A DNA stretch of 51,008 nt from an uncultured archaeon. Its GTDB lineage: Archaea; Asgardarchaeota; Lokiarchaeia; Sigyniarchaeales; SOKP01. Below the pieces are notes generated by a model. It was not told the DNA's origin. It worked only from the letters and a program-made list of their open reading frames with translations, and did no database searches. How positions within the stretch are numbered: position 1 is the stretch's first letter; each line of letters opens with the position of its first letter. Shown here one piece after another: positions 12,720 to 50,392 of the stretch. The position numbers and the translations under genes were made by a program. Where the stretch lies: contig CAZGJX010000013.1 of NCBI GenBank assembly GCA_964525635.1, positions 1-51,008 of the forward strand. Direction: 5' to 3'.

Positions 12720-14027
12720 TTAACATCTCCTTATTATTTCAGCTGCTCTTGCTGCTGCACCACTAGCTTCAGCTACAGAGCGTGGAATGTCCATTGGTTC
12801 GTGTACACATCCACAAGTAAAAATACCTTCCTTACTTGTCTCTACTGGGATATAGGGTGTTGTTTTTATAAAACTATATTTATTTAATTCAATTCCTAAA
12901 ATATCAGCTAATTTTTCAATTCCTTGCGGGGGGATAATACAACTAGCTAAAACTACTAGATCAACTTTCATTTCTCTAATTTCTTCAGTATCTAAATCTT
13001 CATAAACAATGATAGGATTTTCTTCTTGATCTATTGTTATTTCAGCGATTTTACTTTTAATATAACTGATATTATATTCCGTTTGCCCTCTTCGTAGAAA
13101 AGATTGAAATCCTTTTCCCCCTGCTCTCATATCTATATAGAATACATATGATTCTAATTCATTATCATGTTCATAGGCAATCATCGCTTCTTTTGTTGTA
13201 TACATACAACATATTGAGGAACAATATTTTTTTATTCTTTCTGAACGAGAGCCAATACATTGAAGAAATGCTATTTTCTTCGGAGTTTTTCCATCAGAGA
13301 AGCGTTTAATATGGCCTCCTTGAGGACCTGAAGCACATTCTAATCGTTCGAATTCTATTGCTGAAACAACATTTCTAAATTTATTATATCCATAGTTATT
13401 TAGAATTTCTTTATCAATATCCTCAATCAAATTATATCCCGTAGCAACAATTATAGAACCTATATTTTCTAATTTAACAATTTCATCTTTTTGTTCAAAA
13501 TCGATAGCATCTTTCTCACAAGTTTTTTCACAGATTCTACATGCATTCTTTGTAAACCAAAGACAATTATCTCTATCGATTGTCATAATTGCTGGAACAC
13601 CTTGGAGATAATACATATATATAGCTCTTCTTTTCCTTAACCGACGATCAAATTCATCATTAACTCGCATTGGACATTTCTCAACACAAACTCCACAATT
13701 AATACATGCGTCCTCTTTAATATATCTAGCTTTTTTTAATATTTCAACTGAATAATTCCCAGCTGAACCTTCTAATTTTTGAATTTCTGAATAAGAATAT
13801 AATTTGATATTAGGATGACGATAACATTCAGATAATTTTGGAGCTAAAATACAAATTGAACAATCATTTGTGGGAAAGGTTTTATCTAACTGTGCCATTT
13901 TACCGCCTATACATGGTTTCCTCTCCACCATATTAACTTGAATTTCCATATCTGCTAAATCTAATGATGCCTGAATACCGGCGATACCGCCACCTATTAC
14001 TAAAACACTTTTAGATATCTTATTCAT
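12720..14027 (-). CDS. hdrA: HdrA-like flavoprotein (QmoA-like half with inserted ferredoxin; matches the N-terminal half of the 1004-aa HdrA)
   Basis: GGGIAG, DKTFPTNDCSIC, CINCGVCVEKCP, QCIGSR..YCSSICCMY. Confidence 0.9.
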   Translation of the reverse strand: MNKISKSVLVIGGGIAGIQASLDLADMEIQVNMVERKPCIGGKMAQLDKTFPTNDCSICILAPKLSECYRHPNIKLYSYSEIQKLEGSAGNYSVEILKKARYIKEDACINCGVCVEKCPMRVNDEFDRRLRKRRAIYMYYLQGVPAIMTIDRDNCLWFTKNACRICEKTCEKDAIDFEQKDEIVKLENIGSIIVATGYNLIEDIDKEILNNYGYNKFRNVVSAIEFERLECASGPQGGHIKRFSDGKTPKKIAFLQCIGSRSERIKKYCSSICCMYTTKEAMIAYEHDNELESYVFYIDMRAGGKGFQSFLRRGQTEYNISYIKSKIAEITIDQEENPIIVYEDLDTEEIREMKVDLVVLASCIIPPQGIEKLADILGIELNKYSFIKTTPYIPVETSKEGIFTCGCVHEPMDIPRSVAEASGAAARAAEIIRRC

Positions 14028-14071
14028 ATTTAAATTACCTCTTTATTTAGCATAAAATTAATTCTTACATT

Positions 14072-14947
14072 TTACAAAGTAAATTGAATGCTTTCAAATA
14101 GAAGATTAGGTTTTATTCTATGAAAATTAAAACCTAATTCCGTAGGATTGAATCCAAATGCTAAGGCAACTAATTCCGAAAGATAAAATACAGGAAATTT
14201 ATATTCTGAATTATTCTTTTTATTAAGTTCTTTCTGATTGAATTCAAATTGTTGATAGCAAGCAGGACATACAACAACTACGCAATTAGCTCCTGCTGCC
14301 TGAATAGCTTTCAATTTATTATCTATAATTTGAAGTGATAATTCTTTATCTGCTTTTTCAACAGGGTTACCACAACATTCAAGTTTTAAATCATAATCAA
14401 TAGATTCAGCTCCAAGAGATTTAATAACTTCATCAATAGTTATTGGTTCAAAAGGATCATCCCAATTAATTATCTCTGAAGGGCGTAAATAGTGACATCC
14501 ATAATGTACAGCCACTTTAAATCCTTCTAAAGATCGCACAATATTTTCTTTAATTTTTTCAATATTTTGATAAAGTATTTGAGCAAAATGATTTACATTT
14601 ACGTCTCCGTCGTAACTCTTTCCTATTTTTTGAAGATTTTGATTAACCTCTTTTTTAACTACAGAGTCTTTATTTATAAAATAATTTACACCTTTTAACG
14701 TTTCGACACATCCAGAACAAAATGATATAACTCCATCATTTTTGTTACATAAACTTAGATTCCTTGCTCCTAAAGCAAGCCAAGTTTCATGGTCTAGTTG
14801 TTCAATACCTGTGGGATCAGGACAACAACTAAAACCTTCTACATCTCTTAGTTCAATTCCAAGTTTTTCAAAAACTTTTCGAGAAGAAGCTTCTAAATAT
14901 GGTAGTCTAGCAGGAATTACACATCCTAAAAATAAGTCATATACCAT
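14072..14947 (-). CDS. hdrB: Heterodisulfide reductase subunit B
   Basis: FLGC, SCCPDP, CSGC, HYGCH, CCG, CPAC (two CCG domains). Confidence 0.93.
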   Translation of the reverse strand: MVYDLFLGCVIPARLPYLEASSRKVFEKLGIELRDVEGFSCCPDPTGIEQLDHETWLALGARNLSLCNKNDGVISFCSGCVETLKGVNYFINKDSVVKKEVNQNLQKIGKSYDGDVNVNHFAQILYQNIEKIKENIVRSLEGFKVAVHYGCHYLRPSEIINWDDPFEPITIDEVIKSLGAESIDYDLKLECCGNPVEKADKELSLQIIDNKLKAIQAAGANCVVVVCPACYQQFEFNQKELNKKNNSEYKFPVFYLSELVALAFGFNPTELGFNFHRIKPNLLFESIQFTL

Positions 14948-17979: not shown

Positions 17980-18753
17980 TTATTCAAGCATTTTTTTTTT
18001 CCATTCAATATATCCTTTAGTTTCTTGACCTCTATAAAGAGCTTTTCTTCCAGTATCTTTTTTATAGACTTTTTGTAGTGTTTTTTCTTCAGCTTCTCTC
18101 AATTGTTCTTTTACTATACGCTGATCAACCTCAGTTTCCTCTTCTATTTGCTTTATATTCTTCAAGACGAAATATATTCCATGATTCCAAAAGTAAAAAA
18201 GAAGAAATGCTATCCCAATAATCATAAAGATAAAGATACCTAAATCTAAAATCCATCTCCAAATCTCTATATGCCAAAACATCCATATAAAAAACTCTAA
18301 AATTGCTTTTGAAAAGCCCGGTATTACTGCAACAAGGATAAAGAATACTGTAAATACAACTCCTACAACAGTAACTCCAAATAAATATCTCAACGTTGTA
18401 TAATCTTCCCATTTCTTCGCAATTTTTTTATCTTTAAATATAGCTTTACAGATTTTAAAGATTCCTCCACGGAATAGAGTATAGAATAGCACTAATAATA
18501 ATAGATGACCTGTAATAGCAGCAGCAATGATAGCTATTTGGTATCCTATATGAAGGTTAAGAAAAATATCAATTTTTCCTGAAGTTATTAATAAATCAAG
18601 GATCCATCCCCAAATACCCAATACAAGAATTGCAGAACCTATTATAATTGCATAATAGAACCATTTTGCAATCCTTATATCCCATGTACTATAAGCATCA
18701 AGAGGATCTGGAGCTGTGTCCGGAGCCTTTCTTGCAGTTCTCCCTCTTGCCAT
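17980..18753 (-). CDS. Hypothetical multi-pass membrane protein
   Basis: About 4 hydrophobic helices in two hairpins; soluble C-terminus YKKDTGRKALYRGQETKGYIEWKK. Confidence 0.75.
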   Translation of the reverse strand: MARGRTARKAPDTAPDPLDAYSTWDIRIAKWFYYAIIIGSAILVLGIWGWILDLLITSGKIDIFLNLHIGYQIAIIAAAITGHLLLLVLFYTLFRGGIFKICKAIFKDKKIAKKWEDYTTLRYLFGVTVVGVVFTVFFILVAVIPGFSKAILEFFIWMFWHIEIWRWILDLGIFIFMIIGIAFLLFYFWNHGIYFVLKNIKQIEEETEVDQRIVKEQLREAEEKTLQKVYKKDTGRKALYRGQETKGYIEWKKKMLE

Positions 18754-18859
18754 AGTTATTTCAACTTATTATTTATTTAAAAATATTTCATATGTTTTGT
18801 ATAATATATTTATCTTCGATATATTAACTTATAAGTTTATTTATTATTCAATAAATTTC

Positions 18860-19330
18860 TTAATCTTTAGTTCTATCATCTAAAGCACTCTTACAATGTG
18901 GACATTTTTCTATATTTTTTTTAATTTGATTACCACAATAAGGACAATAAATTTTATCATCTTCTTCTTTAGCTTTCTCTTCTTGTACCTTTTCTTCTTT
19001 CTCTAATTGTGCTTCTTCCTTTATTTCTTTCTTTTCCGGAATCTTTTTACCCGCTTTTTTGTAAATTTTTTCTTTAGGTGTTTTAGCTTCTGTTTCCTTC
19101 GGTTTTTCAAATGCTTCTTTTGAAAATGTTAATTCAGATATACACACAGGGCAATAAACACTTCTTTTGAAACCATAATAATAAATAAGAAAAGCAATAA
19201 TACCAAATCCCAATGTTGCAACACATCCCATTACCCATAATGTTTTTTGCATGGGCTTTAATGGTTTTTTTATGGGTTCTTCAATTTCCTTTTTACAAAA
19301 TGTACAATAAGCATATTTAACATTTACCAT
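18860..19330 (-). CDS. LITAF-like zinc ribbon membrane-anchored protein with C-terminal zinc ribbon
   Basis: CTFC..hydrophobic stretch..YCPVC, charged linker, CPYC..CPHC; GGAG RBS. Confidence 0.7.
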   Translation of the reverse strand: MVNVKYAYCTFCKKEIEEPIKKPLKPMQKTLWVMGCVATLGFGIIAFLIYYYGFKRSVYCPVCISELTFSKEAFEKPKETEAKTPKEKIYKKAGKKIPEKKEIKEEAQLEKEEKVQEEKAKEEDDKIYCPYCGNQIKKNIEKCPHCKSALDDRTKD

Positions 19331-19458
19331 TTTTTTATCTCCCAGTTAATTCTGATATTTATTCTTTATAAAAAGATTATTTTCATTAAAAAAATTTTTT
19401 ATCGCTATTTTATTAAATATCTTATTAATATTTATAATTCTATTTATTTGAGTTAAAT

Positions 19459-20787
19459 TTGGCAGAAATTTCAGTAAATAAAAACTATTTTTATATTGAA
19501 ACCTATGGGTGTACTTCAAACAAAGCAGATTCTAATATAATGATCAGTATTTTACAAACCTCTGGTTATATTAAATCTAATATGGAAAATGCTAAATATA
19601 TAATAATTAATACTTGCGCGGTTAAAGAACAGACTGAAAATAAAATAAAAGCTAGATTAAAACAATTGTATTATTATTCTTTGAAGAATATTGATAAAAA
19701 AATAATTATCACAGGATGTTTACCACATATAACCAATAAATATATTGATATTATTAGAAAGATCATTCCTAATTTTTCTGCAATTATCGATATGAACAGT
19801 ATTATTAAGATTATTAGCGTTATTAGAGAAATTGATCGAGGAAAACACAATCTTATTATAAAATCAGAAGATAAGAAAGATAAATCCTATATTCCTATAA
19901 CTTATTTTAGGAAAAAAATTACAGGTATAGTTCCCATTTCCGAAGGTTGTCTTGGTGCATGCACCTATTGTTGTGTAAAAAATGCAAGAGGTAAATTAAA
20001 ATGCTATAATCCTGAAAATATAATAAATAATGTTAAGTATCAGCTTAAACAAGGAATTAAGCAAATATATCTAACCTCTCAAGATTGTAGTATTTATCAA
20101 TATGATAAAACAAAATTATCTGAACTAATAAAGAAAATTAATGATCTTGATAATGGATTTTTTTTAAGAATTGGAATGATTAATCCTAGCTTTTTACTTA
20201 AAAATTTTAACCAATTATTAGAAATATTTCAGTTAAGAAAAGTATATCAATTTCTTCATATACCAATCCAATCTGGAAGTAATAGAATTCTTAAGCTTAT
20301 GAATAGAAGTTATTTAATTTCAGATATTCTGAAGAAAATTAATGATTTAAGAAATAAGTTTCCTTATCTAACTATTTCTACAGATATTATTTGTGGATTT
20401 CCTGAAGAAACTGAATATGATTTTTATCATACAATTAATGTAATAAAGTGGTTAAGACCTGAAATTATTAACATTTCTAAATTCACTCCACGTCCAGGTA
20501 CTAAGGCAAAAAAAATGAATCAAGTGGATAGTAAGATAATTAAAAATAGATCAATAAGATTATCAGATTTATTCAGGCGTAGCCTAGATTTTATGAATCA
20601 AAAATGGATTGGATGGGAAGGTATAGTTTTATTATTACATAAAGTTCAAAAAAATAATCAAGCTTTTGGGAGGAATTTTGCATATAAAAATATATTTATT
20701 GATAAATATACGGGAAATTATGGAGAATTCGTAAAAGTTAAAATATATAAAATAGATGGTTTTAATCTACATGGTAAAATCATTTGA
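19459..20787 (+). CDS. mtaB: tRNA t6A37 methylthiotransferase (archaeal MtaB/CDKAL1-type, MiaB-like radical SAM)
   Basis: ETYGCTSN, INTCAVK, TGCL (UPF0004); GCLGACTYC; FLHIPIQSGS; TDIICGFPEET; C-terminal TRAM. Confidence 0.88.
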   Translation: MAEISVNKNYFYIETYGCTSNKADSNIMISILQTSGYIKSNMENAKYIIINTCAVKEQTENKIKARLKQLYYYSLKNIDKKIIITGCLPHITNKYIDIIRKIIPNFSAIIDMNSIIKIISVIREIDRGKHNLIIKSEDKKDKSYIPITYFRKKITGIVPISEGCLGACTYCCVKNARGKLKCYNPENIINNVKYQLKQGIKQIYLTSQDCSIYQYDKTKLSELIKKINDLDNGFFLRIGMINPSFLLKNFNQLLEIFQLRKVYQFLHIPIQSGSNRILKLMNRSYLISDILKKINDLRNKFPYLTISTDIICGFPEETEYDFYHTINVIKWLRPEIINISKFTPRPGTKAKKMNQVDSKIIKNRSIRLSDLFRRSLDFMNQKWIGWEGIVLLLHKVQKNNQAFGRNFAYKNIFIDKYTGNYGEFVKVKIYKIDGFNLHGKII

Positions 20788-35166: not shown

Positions 35167-35592
35167 ATGAATGGTTATACTTTACTTCAAGTGGAAAAGG
35201 AAATTAAAAATAATGTCATGGATCTATTTAAAAAAAATCATAGCTTAGCACTTGGTGAAATGGTCAAAGAATTATGTATTACACTTAATCATTTAGAAAA
35301 AAGACAAATCGAGCGCTATATTAAAAATATGATAAAAAATGGTTCACTATTAATAGGATCAAGAGCGACAAAAAAAAATATTTCATCATCCATTGAGAGA
35401 TTGGAGATATTTGATTTTATAACTAAAAATCCTGGAAAAACTCTACAAAATCTCTCAAATTCTCTTGACATTAATGTAGGAAAAATTATTTGGCATTTAA
35501 CATTATTAAAAAAGTTCCAATTTATAGAAGTTAAGAAGGAAAAAAAAGAAAATACATATTATCCAAATAAAATATATGAGGGATTTAATTGA
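35167..35592 (+). CDS. wHTH regulator, shorter paralog of the upstream gene
   Basis: NPGKTLQNLSNSLDINVGKIIWHLTLLKKF aligns with the first HTH of 34324-35013; stop overlaps the next start (TTGA). Confidence 0.82.
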   Translation: MNGYTLLQVEKEIKNNVMDLFKKNHSLALGEMVKELCITLNHLEKRQIERYIKNMIKNGSLLIGSRATKKNISSSIERLEIFDFITKNPGKTLQNLSNSLDINVGKIIWHLTLLKKFQFIEVKKEKKENTYYPNKIYEGFN

Positions 35593-38500
35593 ACAAAAAT
35601 AAATTTATATATCAGAATAGAGGTTGGAAATCAAGAAAAAATAATAAATCAATTTTAATATCATTTATTATTTTAACTTTCATATTATTCTCAAGTTTTA
35701 TTTATTCTTTAAATAACATTATGAAGTTCGATTATACTAATCAGAATCATAATTTAAATATATCTGCTCCTAATGAAGCTCCAATATTTATCGATGGAAA
35801 TTCTACAGGTGTAGGTGCGCATAATTGGTCTTGGGCAGAAACTCAAACTTGGTGTACTGGAGTAGGCACTTTTAGTAATCCATATATTATTAGAGATATA
35901 ATAATCAATGGTCAAGAAAGTTCAATTCCTCTAGAGATCATTAATTCAGAGAAGTATCTTGAAATAATTAATTGTACAACTCTTAATTGTTCAACTGAAG
36001 CTGGGATTGTATTAAATAATGTAAATAATACAAAGATTATAGATTGTGATAGTTCTTATAATCTTGGAGATGGGATTTCTCTAAATAGTTGTTTTAACAA
36101 TACTATAGAAAACTTTACAGCTTTTAATAATCGAAATGATGGAATTGAATTAGTTAATAGCCCAAATTGTATTTTAAAAAATAATAATATTAAAAGGAAT
36201 TCATATTTTTCGAGTTCTTATGGAATAACTATAGATAATTCGGATCTTGTTAATATAATCAATAACGAATTCTATTGGGTAGCTTATGGAATTCATATTA
36301 TTGAATCAAATCATTTAATCATCAATCACAATAATTTGACAAGAACACCAAATCGGGGAATAAATATTCAAGGTATATGTACCAATAACACAATCTCTGA
36401 AAATGAAATTTATAATGTAGCCAATACAGGATCAGGATACGGAATAGGTATAAGAATTGTGGGTAGTACAGATATTATTCAAAGTAATAGTAATATTGAA
36501 AATAATTATATATTTAATTGTTATAGTTATGGTATCTATATTTCATCTGTATATACAGACCCTCATGATGATATAACTGTATTTAATAATACAATTGAAA
36601 ATTCTGGTACTGGAATTTATTGTCGTAATTCTAGAAATGGATATGTAGCAAATAATACAATTAATAAATGTAAGACGGGTATAAGTGTAACTGATAATTG
36701 TTATTTGACTATAATTGAATATAATAAAATGTCTGGGGGAGGGATGTCTATAGATTTTGATTACATCTTAGATATAAAAACAACAAATACTGTAAATGGT
36801 AATTCAATCTATTATTATGTTTATGAACCAAATTTAAATACAGCGAATTTTACAAGTAATGGATATCCTGGACAAATTATACTTCGAGATTGTCCTAATT
36901 CCGTTATTGATGGATTTACTTTATCTAATTACTCTCAATGTATTTCAGTATTTAGGTGTGATAATATACAGATAATTAATAACATCGTTCATAATTCAAC
37001 TGGAATAGGAATATCTGTAGAAAATTCACATTATTCAAATATATCTAATAACCGCCTTTTTTATAACGAAAGATATGGTATGGACATCTCAAATTGCCAA
37101 AATTCAAACATTAAAAATAATAATGCTTCTTTTAATGATTATACCGGTTTGGATATAAGTGGATACAATAATACGATTGAAGATAATATTGCCAATAATA
37201 ATAGAATATATGGAATCTCGTTATATTCTGAACTTTCTACTATAGAAAATAACACTATATGTAATAATGGATTGTCAGGTTTATATCTTTGGACAGCACA
37301 TGATTCAGAAATATACAATAATACTATAGAATCTAATTTAGACCATGGTATCTATAATAGTGGAAGCGATAATGTTAATATTACAAAAAATATAATTAAA
37401 AATAATATTAATGCTGGAATAAGAATACTTAATGCTGAAAATACAAAAGGAGATAGAGGTGGACTCATTAATAATAATACTATTTCCTATAATAATGCAG
37501 GTGGTATTGTACTAGAAACATCATATAATATCTCTTTAATTTATAATAATTTAACCTCAAATGTACAAAATATCATTCTGGATTCATGCATTAATTGTTC
37601 TGCAGTCTCAAACACAATTTATCTTGGTGAACAGGGAATTTATAGTGATTATTCCAATCATATTACACTAGATTCAAATTATATTATAGATTGTATTGAG
37701 GGTATAAAATCTTATCGAACAGAATATCTTTCTCTTTATAATAATAATTTAATAAACTCAAGTATTAATTTTGGAAATTATTATTATGACTTTACTTACT
37801 TAAGTACAATGAATGTGTCATTGGACAATACTGTTGATGGAAAAACATTATATATTTATATAAATTCTACAAATCTTACTGAAAATGACTTTTTCTTATT
37901 TGGAGATCCATATATTATAATGTTAATTAATTGTAATGATAGTATTATTAATGATATGCAATTGGTGACTTATGATGTAGGAATTATTCTCTATGCTTGT
38001 AATAATATTATAATTAACAATTCAATCTTTTTAAATTGTTCAATTGGAATATATACAATACAATGTTCTTCAATTAATATAACAGAGTGTGATTTTATTT
38101 ATAATACTGTAGAAGCTATTAGATTTTCTTATACTTCAGATCTTTTAATAGAATCATGCAATATATCTTTTAATTTTGGGAGTGGCATTAGAACTGATGC
38201 AGGTTTATCTGATAATATTATAATTAGGAATAATGATTTTTATTATAATAGTGAATCTCCAATATCATTGAGTGCTGATAATATAGATATTATAAATAAT
38301 CGTATTTGTTATAATGGATTTCCTCCAGAACAATATTATGGTTATAATGGAATATCAATCTGGGCATGTGAAAATTTAACTATTTCAAATAATATAATCA
38401 AAAATAATTCTGGGAATGGAATAAGTTTTGGATTTGTTGATTTTGGAGTGTGTAAAATTGCAGATAATTTTATTGAATACAATAATTATGGTATTTTATT

Positions 38501-40112
38501 AGATGAAACAGTATCTAGTGAATTATATCTTATTAATAATACAATAAAAGATAGTAAGGGAATTGGGGGATTAGATTGGATATGGTCATCTCCATATGTA
38601 GAAATATCTTATAATACATTGATAAACTGTGATTTTAATTTTGATTATAGATTGCCATATTCATTTATAAATTGGAATATAACTTTAACTAATACAATTA
38701 ATGGAAAAATCATATATGCTTATATTAATACTACGGGTTTAAATTCTGAAGATTTTACATTTCTAGGTGATCCCTCGAAAATAATATTAATAAATTGCCA
38801 TAATTCTATTATTGAAAATTTTAATCTAGCCCATTTAAACGATGCCGTTATTCTCCATAAATGTAGTAATATTTTGATCAATAATTTGAACTTAACATAT
38901 ACATCATCATCAGGGATTTATATCGATGAATGTATCAACATTGAGGTTGATAATTGTATTATTTCCCATAATTTACAAAGGGGTATCTTTCTGATTTATG
39001 GAAATCAGTTCCTAACAATAAAAAATTGTCTCTTTCAAAATAATTCTATTGGTATCATTTCAACTCAATTTATAGCTGATACTGAAAATATAGAAATATC
39101 AAATAATATATTCAAACAAAATGAATATGGAATTGACGCTTCTTATGGCGATTATTTCAATATAATTGGTAATCAATTTATTGAAAATGAGAATTATGGT
39201 ATAAGGTTGTCATATCTATATTTTGCAACTATTGAAAATAATGAATTTTTAAGTAATATCAATTCAGGAGTTATTTTATATCATTCTTGTAGAAATTCGA
39301 CAATTTATAATAATATTTTCTGGAATAATTCTATCGGTTTAGAATCTTATTCTAACTCAGAATATAATCTCATTTATTTTAATAATTTTACACAGAATAT
39401 ATTGAATGCAATTGAAAATAATACAAGCAATAAATGGGATAACGGTAAATTTGGAAATTATTGGGACAATTATATTGGAGAGGATTTAGATTTAAATGGT
39501 ATTGGAGATACTCCTTACAATATTCAAGGAATTGCAAATGCTACAGATAATTTTCCTATAGTTAATTTCACTCTAATTAATCCACCTACAACGCCATCAA
39601 CTGATAGAAATCTAATTTTGATAATAGTTATATCATTAATTATTGCCATTTCAGTTTTAACCCTTTTAATTTTTGCACGATTATCTTACGATAAATTCAA
39701 ACCTCAAAAGAAAATTAGTGAACCCACTCTTGGTAAACCAGCATCTCCTGTAGTAAAATTAGAAGACTCTACACCGATGATACAAGAGGTTCTACGAGAA
39801 GAGTTCGAAAGGGAAGTTAATTTAGCGGATTATCAACCACAACAAATTCCTCAACCAACAAATAAGAATTATAAAGCTATAGTGAAACATTCTCCTCATT
39901 TAAAGGAATATCTTGAAACAAATAAATTAATTGAAGATATACCTAAAATGGAGAATTATATTACAAGTTTATCTGATCCTGAAACGATTAGAAAATTAAG
40001 TTTGTTAGATCTTACATTAAAGGAAAGAGGTCTATTAATTGAAGATTTAGTCAACTTAGCTCCTGAAGAGAGAAGAAAACTAATTAATAAAATGTTAGAA
40101 AATATAAATTAA
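35589..40112 (+). CDS. Large cell-surface right-handed beta-helix (NosD/CASH) protein with C-terminal TM and cytoplasmic tail
   Basis: N-terminal hydrophobic helix, many GIxLxxSxNxxIxNNxI repeats, GNYWDNY..DLDLNGIGDTPY, TM helix, about 140-aa tail. Confidence 0.88.
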   Translation: MNKNKFIYQNRGWKSRKNNKSILISFIILTFILFSSFIYSLNNIMKFDYTNQNHNLNISAPNEAPIFIDGNSTGVGAHNWSWAETQTWCTGVGTFSNPYIIRDIIINGQESSIPLEIINSEKYLEIINCTTLNCSTEAGIVLNNVNNTKIIDCDSSYNLGDGISLNSCFNNTIENFTAFNNRNDGIELVNSPNCILKNNNIKRNSYFSSSYGITIDNSDLVNIINNEFYWVAYGIHIIESNHLIINHNNLTRTPNRGINIQGICTNNTISENEIYNVANTGSGYGIGIRIVGSTDIIQSNSNIENNYIFNCYSYGIYISSVYTDPHDDITVFNNTIENSGTGIYCRNSRNGYVANNTINKCKTGISVTDNCYLTIIEYNKMSGGGMSIDFDYILDIKTTNTVNGNSIYYYVYEPNLNTANFTSNGYPGQIILRDCPNSVIDGFTLSNYSQCISVFRCDNIQIINNIVHNSTGIGISVENSHYSNISNNRLFYNERYGMDISNCQNSNIKNNNASFNDYTGLDISGYNNTIEDNIANNNRIYGISLYSELSTIENNTICNNGLSGLYLWTAHDSEIYNNTIESNLDHGIYNSGSDNVNITKNIIKNNINAGIRILNAENTKGDRGGLINNNTISYNNAGGIVLETSYNISLIYNNLTSNVQNIILDSCINCSAVSNTIYLGEQGIYSDYSNHITLDSNYIIDCIEGIKSYRTEYLSLYNNNLINSSINFGNYYYDFTYLSTMNVSLDNTVDGKTLYIYINSTNLTENDFFLFGDPYIIMLINCNDSIINDMQLVTYDVGIILYACNNIIINNSIFLNCSIGIYTIQCSSINITECDFIYNTVEAIRFSYTSDLLIESCNISFNFGSGIRTDAGLSDNIIIRNNDFYYNSESPISLSADNIDIINNRICYNGFPPEQYYGYNGISIWACENLTISNNIIKNNSGNGISFGFVDFGVCKIADNFIEYNNYGILLDETVSSELYLINNTIKDSKGIGGLDWIWSSPYVEISYNTLINCDFNFDYRLPYSFINWNITLTNTINGKIIYAYINTTGLNSEDFTFLGDPSKIILINCHNSIIENFNLAHLNDAVILHKCSNILINNLNLTYTSSSGIYIDECINIEVDNCIISHNLQRGIFLIYGNQFLTIKNCLFQNNSIGIISTQFIADTENIEISNNIFKQNEYGIDASYGDYFNIIGNQFIENENYGIRLSYLYFATIENNEFLSNINSGVILYHSCRNSTIYNNIFWNNSIGLESYSNSEYNLIYFNNFTQNILNAIENNTSNKWDNGKFGNYWDNYIGEDLDLNGIGDTPYNIQGIANATDNFPIVNFTLINPPTTPSTDRNLILIIVISLIIAISVLTLLIFARLSYDKFKPQKKISEPTLGKPASPVVKLEDSTPMIQEVLREEFEREVNLADYQPQQIPQPTNKNYKAIVKHSPHLKEYLETNKLIEDIPKMENYITSLSDPETIRKLSLLDLTLKERGLLIEDLVNLAPEERRKLINKMLENIN

Positions 40113-44665: not shown

Positions 44666-47410
44666 TTAAGAATCTCTTATGATTTGATTAATATATCCAT
44701 ATTGTATTAAATCTGATAAATTAGCACTTATTTTATCTTTAGGTTCGTGAGGTATCCTTAATATTAAAAATTCTAATAATTTGGTTAAATAGAAATTCCC
44801 TGTTAGACTATAATATTTTTTCGCTAATTTAAGTATCTTTTCTTGAAAGGAAGTTAATTGAACAGATGGTGGATTTTCATTAATAATATGAGGATGTACT
44901 AAGTGTATATTAAAATATTTATCTATTAAATCCATAGAATTCTGAAACACAGATATTTCTCCTGAAAAATTTTTTAAGTATTTATAAAATTTGGATTCGA
45001 ATTCTTCGATAAATCCTTTAGATGCACTCATTATATAATCAGATGGCATTAAATTTATTATTAACGCTATTCTTATGAATTCACCATCTTCAATTAGAAT
45101 TTTATATTCTCTAAAATCTAATAAAAACAACTCTTTAGATGGCTTTTTTATTTTTTGTTCTTTTAATACATATTTAAAAGATGTAATTGCTTGAATAAAT
45201 CCACCAATTAAACTTGGTTCTTCTACTATTTTAAAATAATTAAGATTTAGAATAACAGTACTTGTTTCCTTATGGATTATCAATAAAGAATCAATATTAA
45301 GAGTATCAAACAAAACTTCTGTTTTTTCCTTCCAAACAGTTACTTTCTTTACTTTTTTACTTTTCTTTAAGATAATATATATTGAAATTCCAATTAACAC
45401 TGCAATAAGAACTAAAAGAAAAGTTAAATAATCTTGTATAAAAATATCAAACGGAGAACGTGTAATTTTTATTAATACAGTATCAAAACCTATTTGCCCA
45501 GTAGTAGTATTATATTCGATAGTAATATTAAATGTTCCTAAAACTGAAGTATCTAAAATATAAGGAATTGGATCACTATTTAACCAAATACGCCAACTTT
45601 TAGGAATATCGTTTTCATAGAATCTATATGAAATTCCACCAAAATCATCTGAAATTATCCAGCTAAGTAAATATCGAGTACCTTTATATACTTCATGATC
45701 ATTAGGTCCTTCAATTATTGGAATATCATCATTTATTGTGACTATTACTGAACTATTTAATCCCCTTTGGTGATAAATATCATAATATTCAATTGTATAT
45801 ACATATATCCCTGGATCACTCGGTTTTATAGGAACATTTAATAATATGTTATTGTTCCATTGAGTCCAAGGTATCCATTCATAAAAATTATTCTCTATAT
45901 CATTTATAATTATACGATATTCCCCTGTTCCTCCTATCTGATCACTAATCATCCAATTTATTATTCCTGTTACTGTTCCATTTGTGAATATATTATTTGG
46001 AGTGCTTAGTATCATCGGTCTATCATTTATAATTAAGTGTTTATAAAAAATGTCATAATCACTTCCTGCTCCATTATAATCAGTTCGATCTTGCCATACA
46101 ACACATACAGTTCCAAATTTATCTGCTGTAATTGAAGCTGCAGCAGAAAGCTCTGTACTCTCTGATGATATTAAATTCGTAGAACTCCAAGTTTCAGATG
46201 TAGTATTCAATAATCTATAAAATATATCCCTATCTTCTCCTGAATAATCTAAATTTGTAGAATCCTCCCACACTATATACACGTTTTCTAAATTATCCAA
46301 TGTAATAGAAGGATAATAAGAATTTTGAGTACTCCCATTTGAAATTATTTCAACATTACTCCACGTTTTTGTATTATTATCCCATTTTTTATAAAAGATA
46401 TCTGTATCACTTCCACAACCATTATAATCTGTTTTATCTTCCCATGTAATATGTAAGTTTCCTGTATCACCTACAACAATTTTGGGATATTGGGAAAAAT
46501 AAGAACTTTCATTTGAAATTATTTCAATATTACTCCATGTTTTTGTGTTATTATTCCATTTTTTATAAAAGATATCTGCATCACTTCCACATCCATTATA
46601 ATCCTCCCAATCATCCCATACTATATGTATATTATCATATTTATCAATAGTAATTTGTGGATTTTGAGAAGGTTGTGTACTCTCGTTTGATATCACCTCA
46701 GTTATCGTCCATGATTTAGATGTGGCATTCCATCGTTTATAGAATATATCATAATCATAAGTTCCATCAAAATCTGTTATATCAAACCATACAACATGAA
46801 TATTATCTTGGCTATCTATGACCATGGATGGTTCAACAGCGGATTGATTACTTTCTGTTGAAATAAGCTCAATTGAGCTCCATAATCCTGTAGTATAATT
46901 CAAATATTTATAATATATATCACTCTTCTCATTATCATTATTTATTGCAGTTATATTTGAAAGATCATCCCATACTATATGTACATCCCCCAAACTATCT
47001 ATAGCCATTGAAGTAGAAAAAGAATTATTGGTACTTTCATTAGAAATTATTTCAGTTGATGTCCATTCTTGTGTGTTATTATCCCATCTTTTATAAAAAA
47101 TATCCAAATCATTATATCCTGAGCCATTTAGATCTGTAATATCTCGCCATGCTATATGGATATTTTCAAAATCATCCATAAGTATAAATGGAATACTAGA
47201 ATGATTAACACTTTCACTAGAGATTATTTCTGATAATGAAAAACTATATAAGGAGCTTTTTAAGTTACTTGGTATTTTATTTAAATATTCATTATCTTTT
47301 TTTTTTGAAATATTATTATCATTATTATTATAGAAAATAGTTGAAATTAATAAAAATAAAAGTATTAGTAGAAATATATTCATTGATTTTTTATTTTTTT
47401 TTCTAATCAC
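44666..47410 (-). CDS. Single-pass protein: 7-blade beta-propeller + 2 Ig-like + TM + longin-like cytoplasmic domain
   Basis: Seven ~58-aa repeats (IS.ES..S..P.I..D...N.H..W.D......D.DIFYK.W), TM helix, LIGGFIQAITSF..YKILIEDGEFIRIALI..FIEEFE. Confidence 0.82.
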   Translation of the reverse strand: MIRKKNKKSMNIFLLILLFLLISTIFYNNNDNNISKKKDNEYLNKIPSNLKSSLYSFSLSEIISSESVNHSSIPFILMDDFENIHIAWRDITDLNGSGYNDLDIFYKRWDNNTQEWTSTEIISNESTNNSFSTSMAIDSLGDVHIVWDDLSNITAINNDNEKSDIYYKYLNYTTGLWSSIELISTESNQSAVEPSMVIDSQDNIHVVWFDITDFDGTYDYDIFYKRWNATSKSWTITEVISNESTQPSQNPQITIDKYDNIHIVWDDWEDYNGCGSDADIFYKKWNNNTKTWSNIEIISNESSYFSQYPKIVVGDTGNLHITWEDKTDYNGCGSDTDIFYKKWDNNTKTWSNVEIISNGSTQNSYYPSITLDNLENVYIVWEDSTNLDYSGEDRDIFYRLLNTTSETWSSTNLISSESTELSAAASITADKFGTVCVVWQDRTDYNGAGSDYDIFYKHLIINDRPMILSTPNNIFTNGTVTGIINWMISDQIGGTGEYRIIINDIENNFYEWIPWTQWNNNILLNVPIKPSDPGIYVYTIEYYDIYHQRGLNSSVIVTINDDIPIIEGPNDHEVYKGTRYLLSWIISDDFGGISYRFYENDIPKSWRIWLNSDPIPYILDTSVLGTFNITIEYNTTTGQIGFDTVLIKITRSPFDIFIQDYLTFLLVLIAVLIGISIYIILKKSKKVKKVTVWKEKTEVLFDTLNIDSLLIIHKETSTVILNLNYFKIVEEPSLIGGFIQAITSFKYVLKEQKIKKPSKELFLLDFREYKILIEDGEFIRIALIINLMPSDYIMSASKGFIEEFESKFYKYLKNFSGEISVFQNSMDLIDKYFNIHLVHPHIINENPPSVQLTSFQEKILKLAKKYYSLTGNFYLTKLLEFLILRIPHEPKDKISANLSDLIQYGYINQIIRDS
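46336..46603. repeat. 94-nt direct repeat (46336-46429 and 46510-46603) between adjacent propeller blades
   Basis: Manual alignment: 88/94 identical, 174-nt period. Confidence 0.85.
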
Positions 47411-47659
47411 TTATACCAAATCCTTTAATATGCTTACTCGAATATATTATAATTTTCTTTATTTTTTCTTAAAATGAATATCAGAAATCAATAATTAAGA
47501 TATTTTTTTAATTAATTTAATTTCAAATTATGATTAATTTTTATATATTCAGAAACATATCAATGATAGAAGATTTATTATTTATAGATTTTGTATTTAG
47601 TTACAGTTAAATTTCTTAAAATAAAAATCCAATTTAATTATTAATAAAACTGAAAAATA

Positions 47660-50392
47660 TTAGAAGATTGATTCATAATCTTCTCGTATAGGTACTAATA
47701 GTCCAAATTGTTTTAAATCATAGATATTGGCAATTATTTTTTCCTTTGGTTGATTTGGCATTTTTTCAATTAAGTAATTTAATAATTTACCAATAAAGAA
47801 GTGATCTTCTTTTCTCTCGAATTTTTTAATTATTTTTAATAGGTTTTCTTGAAAAGAACTTAATTCAATTGTAGCAAGACCCCTATTTACTCTATGAGGA
47901 TATACTAAAGATGTATTATAATACATATCAATTAGAAATATAGATTTCTGAAAGATATTAATTTCTCCATTAAAATTTTTCAGTAATTTATAATGCTTAT
48001 TTTCAAATTCTTCAATAAATTTCATCGATATTTTTTTTAAGTAGTTTGAAGGTTCTGAATTTAAAATTAAAGCTATTCTAATAAATTCTCCATCTTGAAG
48101 ATATATTTTATACTCCATGAAATCTAATAAAATCGATTCTTTTACTTTTTTTTCTATATTTTCTTTTTTAATTTCATATTTAAAGGAAGTAATTGCTTGT
48201 AGAAAACCACTTATTAAATTAGCTTTATGAGGTATTTTTGAAAAAGTCTTTTCTAAGATAACAGCACTCGTGTTTTTATGAATTAGAAAAAATGAATCAA
48301 TGTTGAGGAAATCGAAAAAGATATCTTTTTTTTCTTTCCATTTACTTCTGTTTTTTCTACTTTTCTTTTGCCTTAATATAATATAAGAAGTTATACCACT
48401 TATGATTCCAATAATTAGAATAATATACATTAAATAATCCTGAATAAATATATCGAAAGGAGATCGAGATATCGTTATTATAACATCATCCCAAAATACT
48501 TGACCTGTGTTTGTTGTAATTTGAATTGTAATATTAAATATTCCTAATTTAGATGTATCAACAATATAAGGAATAGGCACACCACTTGACCATAGAAATG
48601 ATAAGATTGGAATATTATCATTAAATATTATATAATCTCCCCCTCCAAAGTCATCTATGATTGTCCAACTAATTACTTTGTCTCGCCCCTTATATACAGT
48701 AAAATCATTTTGTGAGCTTTCAAAAATAGGGTCGGTATCAATAATAGTTACTTTGACTGAACTATTTATACCTCTAAGATAATATACATCATAATATTCA
48801 ATAGTATAAACAAATACTCCTGTTTTTATACTATTTATTGGAATATTAAATATAGAATTATTATACCAATCATAATATGGACTACATTCGATATGATTAT
48901 CAATTGTATTATTGGTAAAAACATGATACTTTCCTTGTTCAGTATCATCAGTAATAATCCAATTTATTTCTGATCCTGATCCATCAGTAATAATATCAGA
49001 TGGTTGATTTATTTTTGGATATTTATTTTTTATTAAATGTTTAAAAAAAATATCGGTATCTCCTCCACATCCATTATAATCCTCTAAATCAATCCAAGCT
49101 ATACAACCTTTTTCAAGATTTTTGATTGAAATAGTAGGATATTGAGAATATGTATTACTTTCAATAGAAATAACATTTATTATACTCCACACTTTTGAAA
49201 CATTGTTATACCATTTATAGAAAATATCCTCATCTGGACCAGCAATAAAGTAATCTGATAAATCTTGCCATGTAATATAAATATTGTCTAGCTCATCTAT
49301 GGTAATAGATGGATTTATAGAAGCAGAATTGCATTCTCTTGATATAATTTCAACGGAATTCCAATTTTTAGTCGAAGAATTCCTTAATTTATAAAAAATA
49401 TCCCTATCTGATCCACAATTATCATATCTTGTGTGATCATACCATGTTACATGCAAATTATTAGTGCTGTCTATTGCTATTGAAGGTCTATAGGAGGATT
49501 GATTGCACTCTATTGAAACTACTTCAAGGGTAGACCATATTTCAGTAGTAAAATTCCAACTCTTATAAAATATATCATTATCGGTTCCGGAATTATTATA
49601 GTTGGTAGTATCTTGCCAAGCAATATGTACATTACCATTATTATCTGTTGCAATTGAAGGATTTTGGGCTATTCCAGTACATTCAATAGAAATTCTTTCT
49701 ACATTAGTCCATGATGTAGTTGAATTTTCCCATGATCTATAGTAAATATTTGGATTATAATCTGAAATATTATAATCATACCAAGTTATATGAACATTCC
49801 CTTCCAAATCGTTTGTAATTTTAGGATTTCTTGAGTTTTTATCCATTCCAGATGACACTAGTTCTGTTTGTGTCCAATTTCCAGAGATAATATCCCATCG
49901 TCTATAAAAAATATCATAATCTGCTCCAGATGATAATAAATCTGTTTTATCTTCCCAAGCGATATGAATATTACCGAATCTATCCACATTTAATGATGGT
50001 AAAGACGAGTCATTAGTACTATTTGCAGAAATAAGTTCTATATCAGACCATAATTTAGTAACATTATCCCATTTCTTATAGAAGATATCTATATCATCAC
50101 CAGAAGCGGAATAATTATAACTATCTCGCCATATGAGGTGAATATTTCCAAAAATATCTATATCAGATTCTACTCCTGAAGAAGAACCATTACTTTCAAT
50201 GTTAATAACTTCAAGTTGATTAAAACTAATTGAAGAGCTTCTCAAATTCCTAGATAAATTATCAAAATCAATGATATGTTCTTCACTATGTTCTTTAATA
50301 TTATTGGAATTAAAGATTAATGAATTTGCTAATAAAGAGAGAATTATAACAAATAAAATAAGTTTAAAATAATATTTTTTCATAAAATTCAA
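47660..50392 (-). CDS. Tandem paralog: 7-blade beta-propeller + 2 Ig-like + TM + longin-like cytoplasmic domain
   Basis: Same seven repeats; RSPFDIFIQDYL juxtamembrane motif shared with the paralog; LISGFLQAITSF..YKIYLQDGEFIRIALI. Confidence 0.82.
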   Translation of the reverse strand: MNFMKKYYFKLILFVIILSLLANSLIFNSNNIKEHSEEHIIDFDNLSRNLRSSSISFNQLEVINIESNGSSSGVESDIDIFGNIHLIWRDSYNYSASGDDIDIFYKKWDNVTKLWSDIELISANSTNDSSLPSLNVDRFGNIHIAWEDKTDLLSSGADYDIFYRRWDIISGNWTQTELVSSGMDKNSRNPKITNDLEGNVHITWYDYNISDYNPNIYYRSWENSTTSWTNVERISIECTGIAQNPSIATDNNGNVHIAWQDTTNYNNSGTDNDIFYKSWNFTTEIWSTLEVVSIECNQSSYRPSIAIDSTNNLHVTWYDHTRYDNCGSDRDIFYKLRNSSTKNWNSVEIISRECNSASINPSITIDELDNIYITWQDLSDYFIAGPDEDIFYKWYNNVSKVWSIINVISIESNTYSQYPTISIKNLEKGCIAWIDLEDYNGCGGDTDIFFKHLIKNKYPKINQPSDIITDGSGSEINWIITDDTEQGKYHVFTNNTIDNHIECSPYYDWYNNSIFNIPINSIKTGVFVYTIEYYDVYYLRGINSSVKVTIIDTDPIFESSQNDFTVYKGRDKVISWTIIDDFGGGDYIIFNDNIPILSFLWSSGVPIPYIVDTSKLGIFNITIQITTNTGQVFWDDVIITISRSPFDIFIQDYLMYIILIIGIISGITSYIILRQKKSRKNRSKWKEKKDIFFDFLNIDSFFLIHKNTSAVILEKTFSKIPHKANLISGFLQAITSFKYEIKKENIEKKVKESILLDFMEYKIYLQDGEFIRIALILNSEPSNYLKKISMKFIEEFENKHYKLLKNFNGEINIFQKSIFLIDMYYNTSLVYPHRVNRGLATIELSSFQENLLKIIKKFERKEDHFFIGKLLNYLIEKMPNQPKEKIIANIYDLKQFGLLVPIREDYESIF

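Follow-up and report, generated by a model that had tools for sequence, protein, structure and literature searches.

Tandem Lokiarchaeial surface proteins combine a seven-bladed propeller outside the cell with a longin–winged-helix-like module inside

In eukaryotes, the first longin domains of the FUZ/MON1/HPS1 proteins (PF19036), which belong to Mon1–Ccz1, CPLANE Fuzzy–Inturned, and BLOC-3, pair up and hold a Rab, and this Fuz_longin_1 domain forms the Rab-binding site of the tri-longin guanine nucleotide exchange factors (GEFs). Other eukaryotic longins, those of the AP and COPI sigma/zeta subunits and of SNAREs, have roles in sorting, and the longin SNAREs VAMP7, Sec22b, and Ykt6 combine a membrane anchor with a cytosolic longin domain. 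Asgard archaea encode ~100 small GTPases and dozens of longin or roadblock domains. The longin expansion in Loki genomes is documented, with 41 longin-like domains in Lokiarchaeum and 130 roadblock/longin Asgard clusters of orthologous genes (asCOGs); described Asgard longin fusions involve GTPases, TRAPPC3, DENN, and two-component domains (PMC10933270; PMC4917890; bioRxiv 10.1101/2020.10.19.343400). The expansion itself is thus known. What appears to be new is a longin domain placed below a transmembrane (TM) helix and a large ectodomain, for which we found no description in Asgard archaea in the literature searched. Here, we analyze two adjacent genes with this layout, P0001 and P0002, from a 51,008-bp window that comprises an entire contig (C13; CAZGJX010000013.1) of a Lokiarchaeial genome assembly (GCA_964525635.1; 4.45 Mb, G+C ~27%).

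Both open reading frames (ORFs) are intact and co-oriented on the minus strand, as are all features of the pair given below, and they occupy the final 6 kb of the window. Gene 1 (P0001, positions 44666–47410) comprises 914 codons from a GTG start, with an alternative ATG at codon 10. Gene 2 (P0002, 47660–50392) comprises 910 codons; its start is likely the ATG at 50381–50383, which yields a protein of 907 amino acids beginning MKKYYF. The two products are paralogs of the same architecture that align collinearly over 905 residues with 46% identity, rising to 53% between their C-terminal tails. The analyses described below bear out the layout proposed in a first-pass annotation of the DNA, namely a paralogous pair of receptor-like proteins with a propeller, an Ig-like stalk, a TM helix, and a cytoplasmic longin-like domain. 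We regard it as an even proposition that each gene encodes a protein for adhesion or sensing at the cell surface, with a juxtamembrane longin–winged-helix (WH) cassette that docks a cytoplasmic partner.

The type I topology is evident in both proteins, each with an N-terminal helix, an ectodomain, a single TM helix, and an internal tail. In P0001, a basic n-region and hydrophobic signal/anchor helix (47327–47410; hydropathy peak at residues 7–30) open the protein, and a TM helix at residues ~660–681, also helical in the AlphaFold2 (AF2) model, is followed by the basic stop-transfer sequence KKSKKVKK (45344–45433 for helix and basic cluster). The equivalent helix of P0002 was located by hydropathy at residues 652–673 (48374–48439) and is followed by RQKKSRKNRSK; the helices span 20–22 residues. 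N-x-S/T sequons are strongly biased toward the ectodomain, which holds 20 of 22 in P0001 and 18 of 21 in P0002. Because an N-terminal basic region and helix, a TM helix trailed by a Lys/Arg cluster, and ectodomain-biased sequons coincide, the tail is assigned to the cytoplasm. The first-pass annotation had proposed the same signal helix, TM helix, and cytoplasmic tail; an extracellular tail, which would have run counter to it, is at odds with the basic clusters and the sequon distribution. Each gene would specify a cell-surface protein that crosses the membrane once and is N-glycosylated, in a Lokiarchaeial (Promethearchaeota) archaeon.

Beneath the membrane, both proteins carry a tail of ~225 amino acids with the pattern LIxGFxQAIxSF...DGEFIRIALI...FIEEFE...FxGEI. 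In gene 1, the juxtamembrane helix and longin domain cover residues ~691–839 (44894–45340), as placed by AF2, VIA structural comparison, and Foldseek; in gene 2, the longin domain and WH-like end lie at 47684–48304 and match the tail profile with an E-value of 2.3e-74. Across 57 diverse members of the family, 15 tail positions are conserved at ≥90%. An AF2 model of the tail, built from an alignment of 57 tails, reached a predicted local distance difference test score (pLDDT) of 86.5 and a predicted TM-score (pTM) of 0.79. After a juxtamembrane helix (model residues 2–15), the model runs through strands 17–24 and 30–35, helix 43–61, strands 72–77, 80–86, and 90–96, and helices 102–124 and 131–149, an order that constitutes the complete longin ββ-α-βββ-α-α topology. 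All of the best solved matches in VIA, which cover model residues 11/16–150, are longin domains: VAMP7 (4afi_B; Z 11.7, root-mean-square deviation [rmsd] 2.9 over 121 amino acids, model residues 11–149), the longin of a Lokiarchaeal Roadblock-Longin protein (8yqg_B; Z 11.6, 132 residues), Fuzzy of CPLANE (7q3d_C; Z 11.6), Sec22 (3egd_C; Z 11.3), and 2dmw (Z 11.1). Mon1–Ccz1 (Z 9.2–9.8), BLOC-3 (Z 9.6), AP sigma subunits, synbindin, and sedlin appear lower in the same list. No NPRL2 or FLCN longin chain could be identified among the 50 best VIA matches. Foldseek returned AP2 sigma (7.6e-5) followed by COPZ1, LAMTOR, and MglB. A roadblock fold was considered and rejected, as roadblock proteins align only to the core (12–125) and omit the N-terminal helix; longin alignments span both C-terminal helices, whereas roadblock alignments end at ~125, which favors longin. 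The longin-like domain anticipated by the first-pass annotation is thereby placed on a structural footing, with complete topology and longin matches at Z 11.3–11.7.

The sequence connection to curated longin families is more remote. Pfam searches with the 57 tails gave no recurrent family (best, Sybindin with E 0.12 in 2 members), and the profile of these tails retrieved only coiled-coil noise from PDB sequences (E>0.01). Soluble longins of 135 amino acids from the same genome, however, score against the tail profile with E-values of 1e-9 to 1e-8, and these in turn match Fuz_longin_1 (FUZ/MON1/HPS1, PF19036) with an E-value of 1.2e-5 and 26.0 bits, against a cut-off of 26.1. Judged by sequence, the link from the tail to a curated longin family appears to be transitive only, running via the soluble paralogs.

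Comparison with characterized longin proteins shows both kinship and departure. The tail shares its fold with the first longin of the FUZ/MON1/HPS1 proteins but, unlike the tri-longin Rab GEFs, has one longin rather than three, sits ~20 residues past a TM helix under a 650-amino-acid ectodomain, is followed by a WH-like bundle, and falls below the Pfam model. Longin SNAREs, which include top structural matches, are likewise membrane anchored with a cytosolic longin; in contrast, P0001 and P0002 lack a SNARE motif or coiled coil, and their orientation is opposite, being type I proteins with a large ectodomain and a longin C-terminal to the TM helix rather than tail-anchored proteins. With the Asgard longin/roadblock eukaryotic signature proteins represented by 8yqg, the tail shares both superfamily and phylum.

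The last part of the tail (gene 1 residues ~849–911, 44678–44866) is modeled by AF2 as a three-helix bundle (tail model helices 165–181, 186–196, and 202–215) with one short strand, in line with the WH-like domain suggested in the first-pass annotation. One account of this arrangement is a membrane-tethered one-component regulator, in which the WH domain would bind DNA at the membrane or after proteolytic release while the longin dimerizes or senses a ligand, by analogy to ToxR and CadC. The HTH-like (helix-turn-helix) fold of the final 65 residues is compatible with such a role, as are a soluble paralog that couples the same longin to a TrmB-matching domain and the presence of TrmB- and HTH_47-bearing clusters among the neighbors of the module in the ESM Atlas. 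The details of the bundle argue otherwise. The proteins end 3–8 residues past helix 3 and leave no real wing, net charge of the bundle is near neutral across the family (median ~+1, range −8 to +8), helix 3 conserves mainly hydrophobic and acidic residues, and no Pfam HTH model matched the bundle in P0001, P0002, or the 57 family members. Nor did the tail loci reveal conserved target-like neighboring genes. DNA binding by the tail bundle looks unlikely, and we judge the regulator account as a whole to be quite improbable.

The soluble paralog, a 262-amino-acid protein encoded on contig C4 of this genome (1441–2226; L012), joins a longin to a TrmB/HTH_47/MarR-type winged helix and may represent a free-standing relative of the tail module. 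Its longin aligns with the tail longin at an hhalign probability of 98%, and its C-terminal domain is recognized by HTH_47 and MarR models as well as by TrmB, whose score exceeds the cut-off (E 9e-6). The helices of its winged helix line up with those of the tail bundle, by eye only.

An exhaustive phmmer search against 1.8 billion cluster representatives (50% identity clusters) showed the tail family to be conserved far more than chance would allow, with matches in 627 clusters at E≤1e-3, 230 of them at E≤1e-10. Most matches are C-terminal in proteins of 900–1900 amino acids, and every database name met for a tail carrier is "hypothetical protein". Named carriers belong almost entirely to Promethearchaeota/Loki, Thor, Hod, Hel, Sigyn, and Atabeyarchaeia, with two rows labeled Bathyarchaeota and Deferrimicrobium. 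Proteins of ~900 residues whose tails are 40–47% identical to that of P0001 share only 12–14% identity in the ectodomain, and other carriers display Big_1, MG4, or unrecognized ectodomains. Of 52 tail genes examined, 42 encode a TM helix whose end lies 12–37 residues ahead of the module; a few carriers are soluble. By shape, the whole module (TM-score 0.89 over residues 1–225) recurs in unnamed Promethearchaeota clusters of the ESM Atlas. The tail profile identified 9 single-pass carriers with large ectodomains, ~12 multi-pass proteins, and ~8 small soluble longins in this genome, and the full module is present in 16 of 40 other Asgard genomes sampled; on the contig itself, only P0001 and P0002 match. 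In these sequence comparisons, the tail is a shuffled, reusable Asgard cassette found below many unrelated ectodomains.

Several further forms of the module were observed. The ~12 multi-pass proteins (5–7 TM helices, 326–449 amino acids), which terminate in this longin domain but lack the WH part, may be the 7TM-type equivalent of the single-pass carriers; their genes in this genome (G000) include C90:5489–6556 and 13798–14775, C93:4269–5591, C35:16667–17989 and 18233–19564, C14:44148–45494, C98:2245–3339, C20:12709–13782, and C87:1104–2258. Two TPR proteins of ~730 amino acids, encoded directly upstream of the third propeller–longin paralog of this genome (L047, contig C77, 725–5333), match part of the tail profile with their C-terminal regions. 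Contigs C3, C89, C47, and C33 carry at least nine further members of this ~735-amino-acid family, and Atlas clusters of 734 and 753 amino acids contain the whole tail module by shape. Elsewhere, ORFs of 241–258 amino acids (L054, G019:C91, 5016–5789; L041, 7950–8672) consist of the tail module alone, with a Lys-rich N-terminus and neither a TM helix nor an ectodomain, and a soluble form of 455–467 amino acids bears a C-terminal extension of 171–176 amino acids (L062, L064, L067, and L069).

On the outer face, seven repeats were identified in each protein from D-I-F/Y-Y-K/R anchors, at residues 103, 164, 221, 279, 337, 395, and 453 of P0001 and 102, 160, 215, 273, 331, 389, and 447 of P0002. 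Their spacing is 55–61 residues and mostly 58 (57–61 in P0001). An AF2 model of P0001 residues 40–665, based on an alignment of 41 homologues, reached a pLDDT of 90 and a pTM of 0.75 and shows seven blades of four strands each, followed by two beta-sandwiches and the first part of the TM helix, in agreement with the seven ~58-residue blades and two sandwich-like segments of the first-pass annotation. The acidic loops described there held up in part: the literal DYNGCGSDxD motif is confined to blades 4 and 5 in P0001, the other blades having degenerate acidic versions, and blade 7 of P0002 has the variant DYNGCGGDTD. The propeller spans residues ~55–461 of P0001 (46028–47248), delimited by the repeats, the AF2 model, a structural match to CylK, and SBBP matches in homologues; in gene 2, it lies at 49025–50233 according to repeat anchors 102–447 and the alignment to gene 1. 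Of the two sandwiches, which in gene 1 are placed by AF2 strands, the first is Fn3-like (residues ~466–559, 45734–46015), the family profile over this region matching the Fn3-like structure 3mpc_A with an E-value of 7e-5; the second is an Ig-like stalk (residues ~565–650, 45461–45718). Collinear alignment places the corresponding pair of gene 2 at 48458–49015.

A subthreshold Pfam match to TRAP_alpha was noted in both paralogs (E 2e-4 and 0.04; window positions 45344–45520 and 48350–48520). It spans the last strands of the second sandwich and the TM helix, and may be driven by the latter. TRAP alpha homologues are known from Asgard archaea (PMC11417166).

The closest structural relative of the propeller is the C-terminal propeller of CylK (7ron_A), which topped the exhaustive VIA comparison with a Z-score of 42.2 and an rmsd of 2.6 over 375 residues; the next matches lie 11 Z units lower. 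The two propellers have seven blades and long internal loops in common, although sequence identity to CylK is 14% and P0001 and P0002 lack its N-terminal beta-roll domain. As the beta-roll supplies half of the CylK active site, the alkylating chemistry of CylK is not expected here. Pfam searches of P0001 and P0002, whole and in separate parts, gave no match at cut-off: SBBP (PF06739) scored 13.7–18.3 bits in P0001 and 18.8 bits in P0002, below its gathering cut-off of 20.5, and BNR_2 only 13–17.8 bits against a cut-off of 31.4. Among the 41 aligned homologues, 25 match SBBP, with a best E-value of 7.4e-17. The modeled fold, together with these matches, points to an SBBP-type, CylK-like propeller, as distinct from an integrin FG-GAP or sialidase propeller. 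A catalytic sialidase site, whose presence would have told against the first-pass annotation, was sought specifically, and sialidase identity was ruled out: the Asp-box S-x-D-x-G-x-T-W is absent from the propeller even with a relaxed pattern, and there are seven blades rather than six. The DxDxDG pattern is likewise absent.

The order of parts, a seven-bladed propeller followed by Ig-like leg domains, a TM helix, and a cytoplasmic tail, is also that of integrin alpha, and the first-pass annotation drew this comparison as an analogy. True homology would entail an FG-GAP propeller with thigh and calf legs and a beta-like partner. Beyond the shared layout, integrins alphaM, alphaV, and alpha5 do appear in both fold searches, with Foldseek E-values of ~1e-12 and VIA Z-scores of 28.6–30.4 over 440–454 residues that include the thigh domain. 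These alignments nevertheless have an rmsd of 5.3–5.9 (5.3 for alphaM, at Z 30.4), and their Z-scores are no higher than that of the PLL lectin (31.1), only marginally above those of WD40 proteins (27–29), and far from that of CylK. Foldseek with the ectodomain returned generic propeller-plus-Ig proteins only (sialidase, integrins, galactose oxidase, and lectins). Pfam detected neither FG-GAP nor VCBS, with thresholds of E≤1 for the full-length proteins and E≤10 for the isolated propeller. The blades carry an SBBP/BNR_4-like motif, the vicinity of the pair showed no gene resembling a beta subunit, and the tail is unrelated to that of integrins. We therefore keep the resemblance as analogy and consider integrin homology extremely improbable.

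The propeller would most likely offer several equivalent binding sites for a ligand, which would probably be a glycan or another surface. In CylK, the internal loops of the propeller are unusually long, and every junction between blades has a Ca2+ site (PMC8916777); this makes Ca2+ in the acidic loops of P0001 and P0002 a reasonable guess; by this analogy, the acidic inter-strand loops probably hold Ca2+. Propellers without the tail are widespread, occurring as secreted or anchored proteins of ~580 amino acids in Loki, Hel, Heimdall, and Thor, and this genome encodes three full-architecture copies (P0001, P0002, and one on contig C77) along with ~9 more distant propeller proteins.

How common the tail-less proteins are lends some weight to a doubtful but serious alternative, in which P0001 and P0002 would be adhesins, glycan-binding proteins, or glycan-cleaving proteins that do not signal, and the tail would serve in anchoring, sorting, clustering, or turnover, for example by cytoskeletal or ESCRT-type attachment. 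Six of the 41 aligned homologues match BNR_4, a family that includes ulvan lyases (E 1.4e-12); the only match of the propeller sequence in the PDB was a weak one of a single P0001 blade to the ulvan lyase PL25 (E 0.015), and seven-bladed enzymes of the PL42 and GH145 types align with the propeller at Z 29. The ectodomain is also heavily sequon-rich, and the sorting functions of eukaryotic AP/COPI sigma/zeta and SNARE longins offer a precedent for such a tail. Against an enzyme, all seven blades share one consensus without blade-specific, catalytic-looking residues, a uniformity that favors a scaffold or multivalent binder. A tail that merely anchors is hard to reconcile with a strongly conserved two-domain module of 225 amino acids, which exceeds the needs of a passive anchor, and with the GTPase genes that adjoin several paralogs.

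Under our preferred reading of an adhesion or sensing protein with a docking cassette, the SBBP/CylK-type propeller would be held outside the cell on a stalk of two Fn3/Ig-like domains, and the longin and small WH-like bundle, ~20 residues past the membrane helix, would form a membrane-tethered platform for docking and dimerization through which the surface protein is linked to a partner in the cytoplasm. A Ras/Rab/Arf-like small GTPase is the leading candidate for this partner, with a longin or roadblock protein as an alternative, and the protein could serve as an adhesion or sensing receptor. The genome provides ample candidates, with 85–91 Ras/Arf-like small GTPase genes. Four of its nine single-pass tail genes have a GTPase gene within 2 kb, compared with 9.1% of ORFs of ≥200 amino acids (binomial p ~0.006, for a threshold chosen post hoc). 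On contig C133 (L043, 270–7053), three Ras-like GTPase genes (170, 177, and 182 amino acids) precede a gene for a 1605-amino-acid single-pass longin–WH protein; the tail gene is separated from them by a 15-bp gap in the same orientation, and the arrangement is repeated in a genome of the same genus (L076). Two observations concern longins of this family in other contexts: contig C153 (L024, 1465–2376) encodes a 304-amino-acid fusion of such a longin to an Arf/Ras-like GTPase domain, and the multi-pass longin gene on C98 is followed after 120 bp by a gene for a 184-amino-acid Arf/Ras-like GTPase.

Several results weigh against this reading, above all against its GTPase component. The tails of P0001 and P0002 have no Pfam match at E≤10, so no curated longin model is reached directly, and a longin fold alone is no proof of GTPase binding, since longin-type folds also occur in adaptors and SNARE regulators. 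The wiring to small GTPases proposed in the first-pass annotation found no backing in gene context: the 51-kb contig, the contig of the third paralog, and 11 orthologous loci all lack a small GTPase gene, and of 40 tail genes examined with 5-kb flanks in 16 other Asgard genomes, just 2 lie within 2 kb of one, a frequency no higher than background. When the ORFs flanking ~55 tail loci were clustered, no partner family emerged as conserved; the clusters amounted to local synteny and, in 6 loci, GTPases. Binding of Ca2+ and of ligand, in turn, is deduced from motif and fold only. We accordingly make no claim of a general linkage between tail and GTPase genes, which is suggestive in this genome but not among the 40 genes of the 16 others. 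The lack of a genomic GTPase link for the P0001/P0002 clade also counts in favor of the non-signaling alternative. Longin and roadblock genes seldom share an operon with Asgard GTPases (PMC10933270), and because of this rarity the missing linkage is weak evidence either way. GTPase docking is thus put forward as a hypothesis built on the fold, the Fuz/Mon1-type affinity, and a few paralogous operons.

A bolder version of the docking hypothesis would make the longin–WH cassette the output domain of an Asgard-confined receptor system, in which ligand binding to exchangeable ectodomains, in this pair a multivalent Ca2+ propeller, joins two tails into a Mon1–Ccz1-like platform that loads or switches a Ras/Rab-like GTPase at the membrane. 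We think this unlikely as it stands, although its consequences would be considerable: such a system would be a prokaryotic forerunner of receptor-to-small-GTPase signaling, with the multi-pass proteins as its 7TM-type counterpart. More generally, a longin ~20 residues below the membrane, beneath many different surface domains, offers a concrete entry point to the identity of the partner. Should that partner be a GTPase, the control of Ras-superfamily switches by membrane receptors would be older than eukaryotes. Should it be something else, the cassette would still define a large uncharacterized family of Asgard surface proteins and would warn against taking each Asgard longin for a regulator of GTPases.

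The tandem arrangement of the pair was compared across related genomes using 14 close tails as queries, which led to the 11 orthologous loci. Orthologues of P0001 occur in three other Promethearchaeota assemblies with tail identity of ~74–75%; P0003, a full-length orthologue, has 64% identity. In the tail tree, P0002 branches as sister to the P0001 clade and is more divergent, and no P0002 orthologue was present among the loci fetched. At P0003 (L031), the one orthologous locus with readable flanks, the neighboring genes are unrelated and include no paralog. The single orthologous locus inspected thus does not preserve the tandem, which may be lineage-specific. Heterodimerization of the two proteins, suggested in the first-pass annotation, gains no support from these loci and stays a hypothesis. 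What recurs across assemblies is a P0001-type gene together with a C77-type gene: the tree contains orthologues of the C77 paralog in two of the same assemblies, and P0006 appears to be this genome's own C77 paralog. Tail-bearing tandem pairs were also observed in two complete genomes of another Asgard family (L060, G012:C1, 923 and 1058 amino acids; L061, G023:C1, 917 and 1129 amino acids), and a genome of the same family carries a triple array of 763-amino-acid tail-bearing genes (L070, G008:C30).

Elsewhere in the window, positions 35589–40112 encode a 1507-amino-acid beta-helix surface protein (NosD/Beta_helix) without the longin–WH tail. Downstream of the pair lies a convergent hdrA-like gene, and the two paralogs are separated by an AT-rich spacer of 249 bp (47411–47659) with a T-rich stretch past the stop codon of gene 2.

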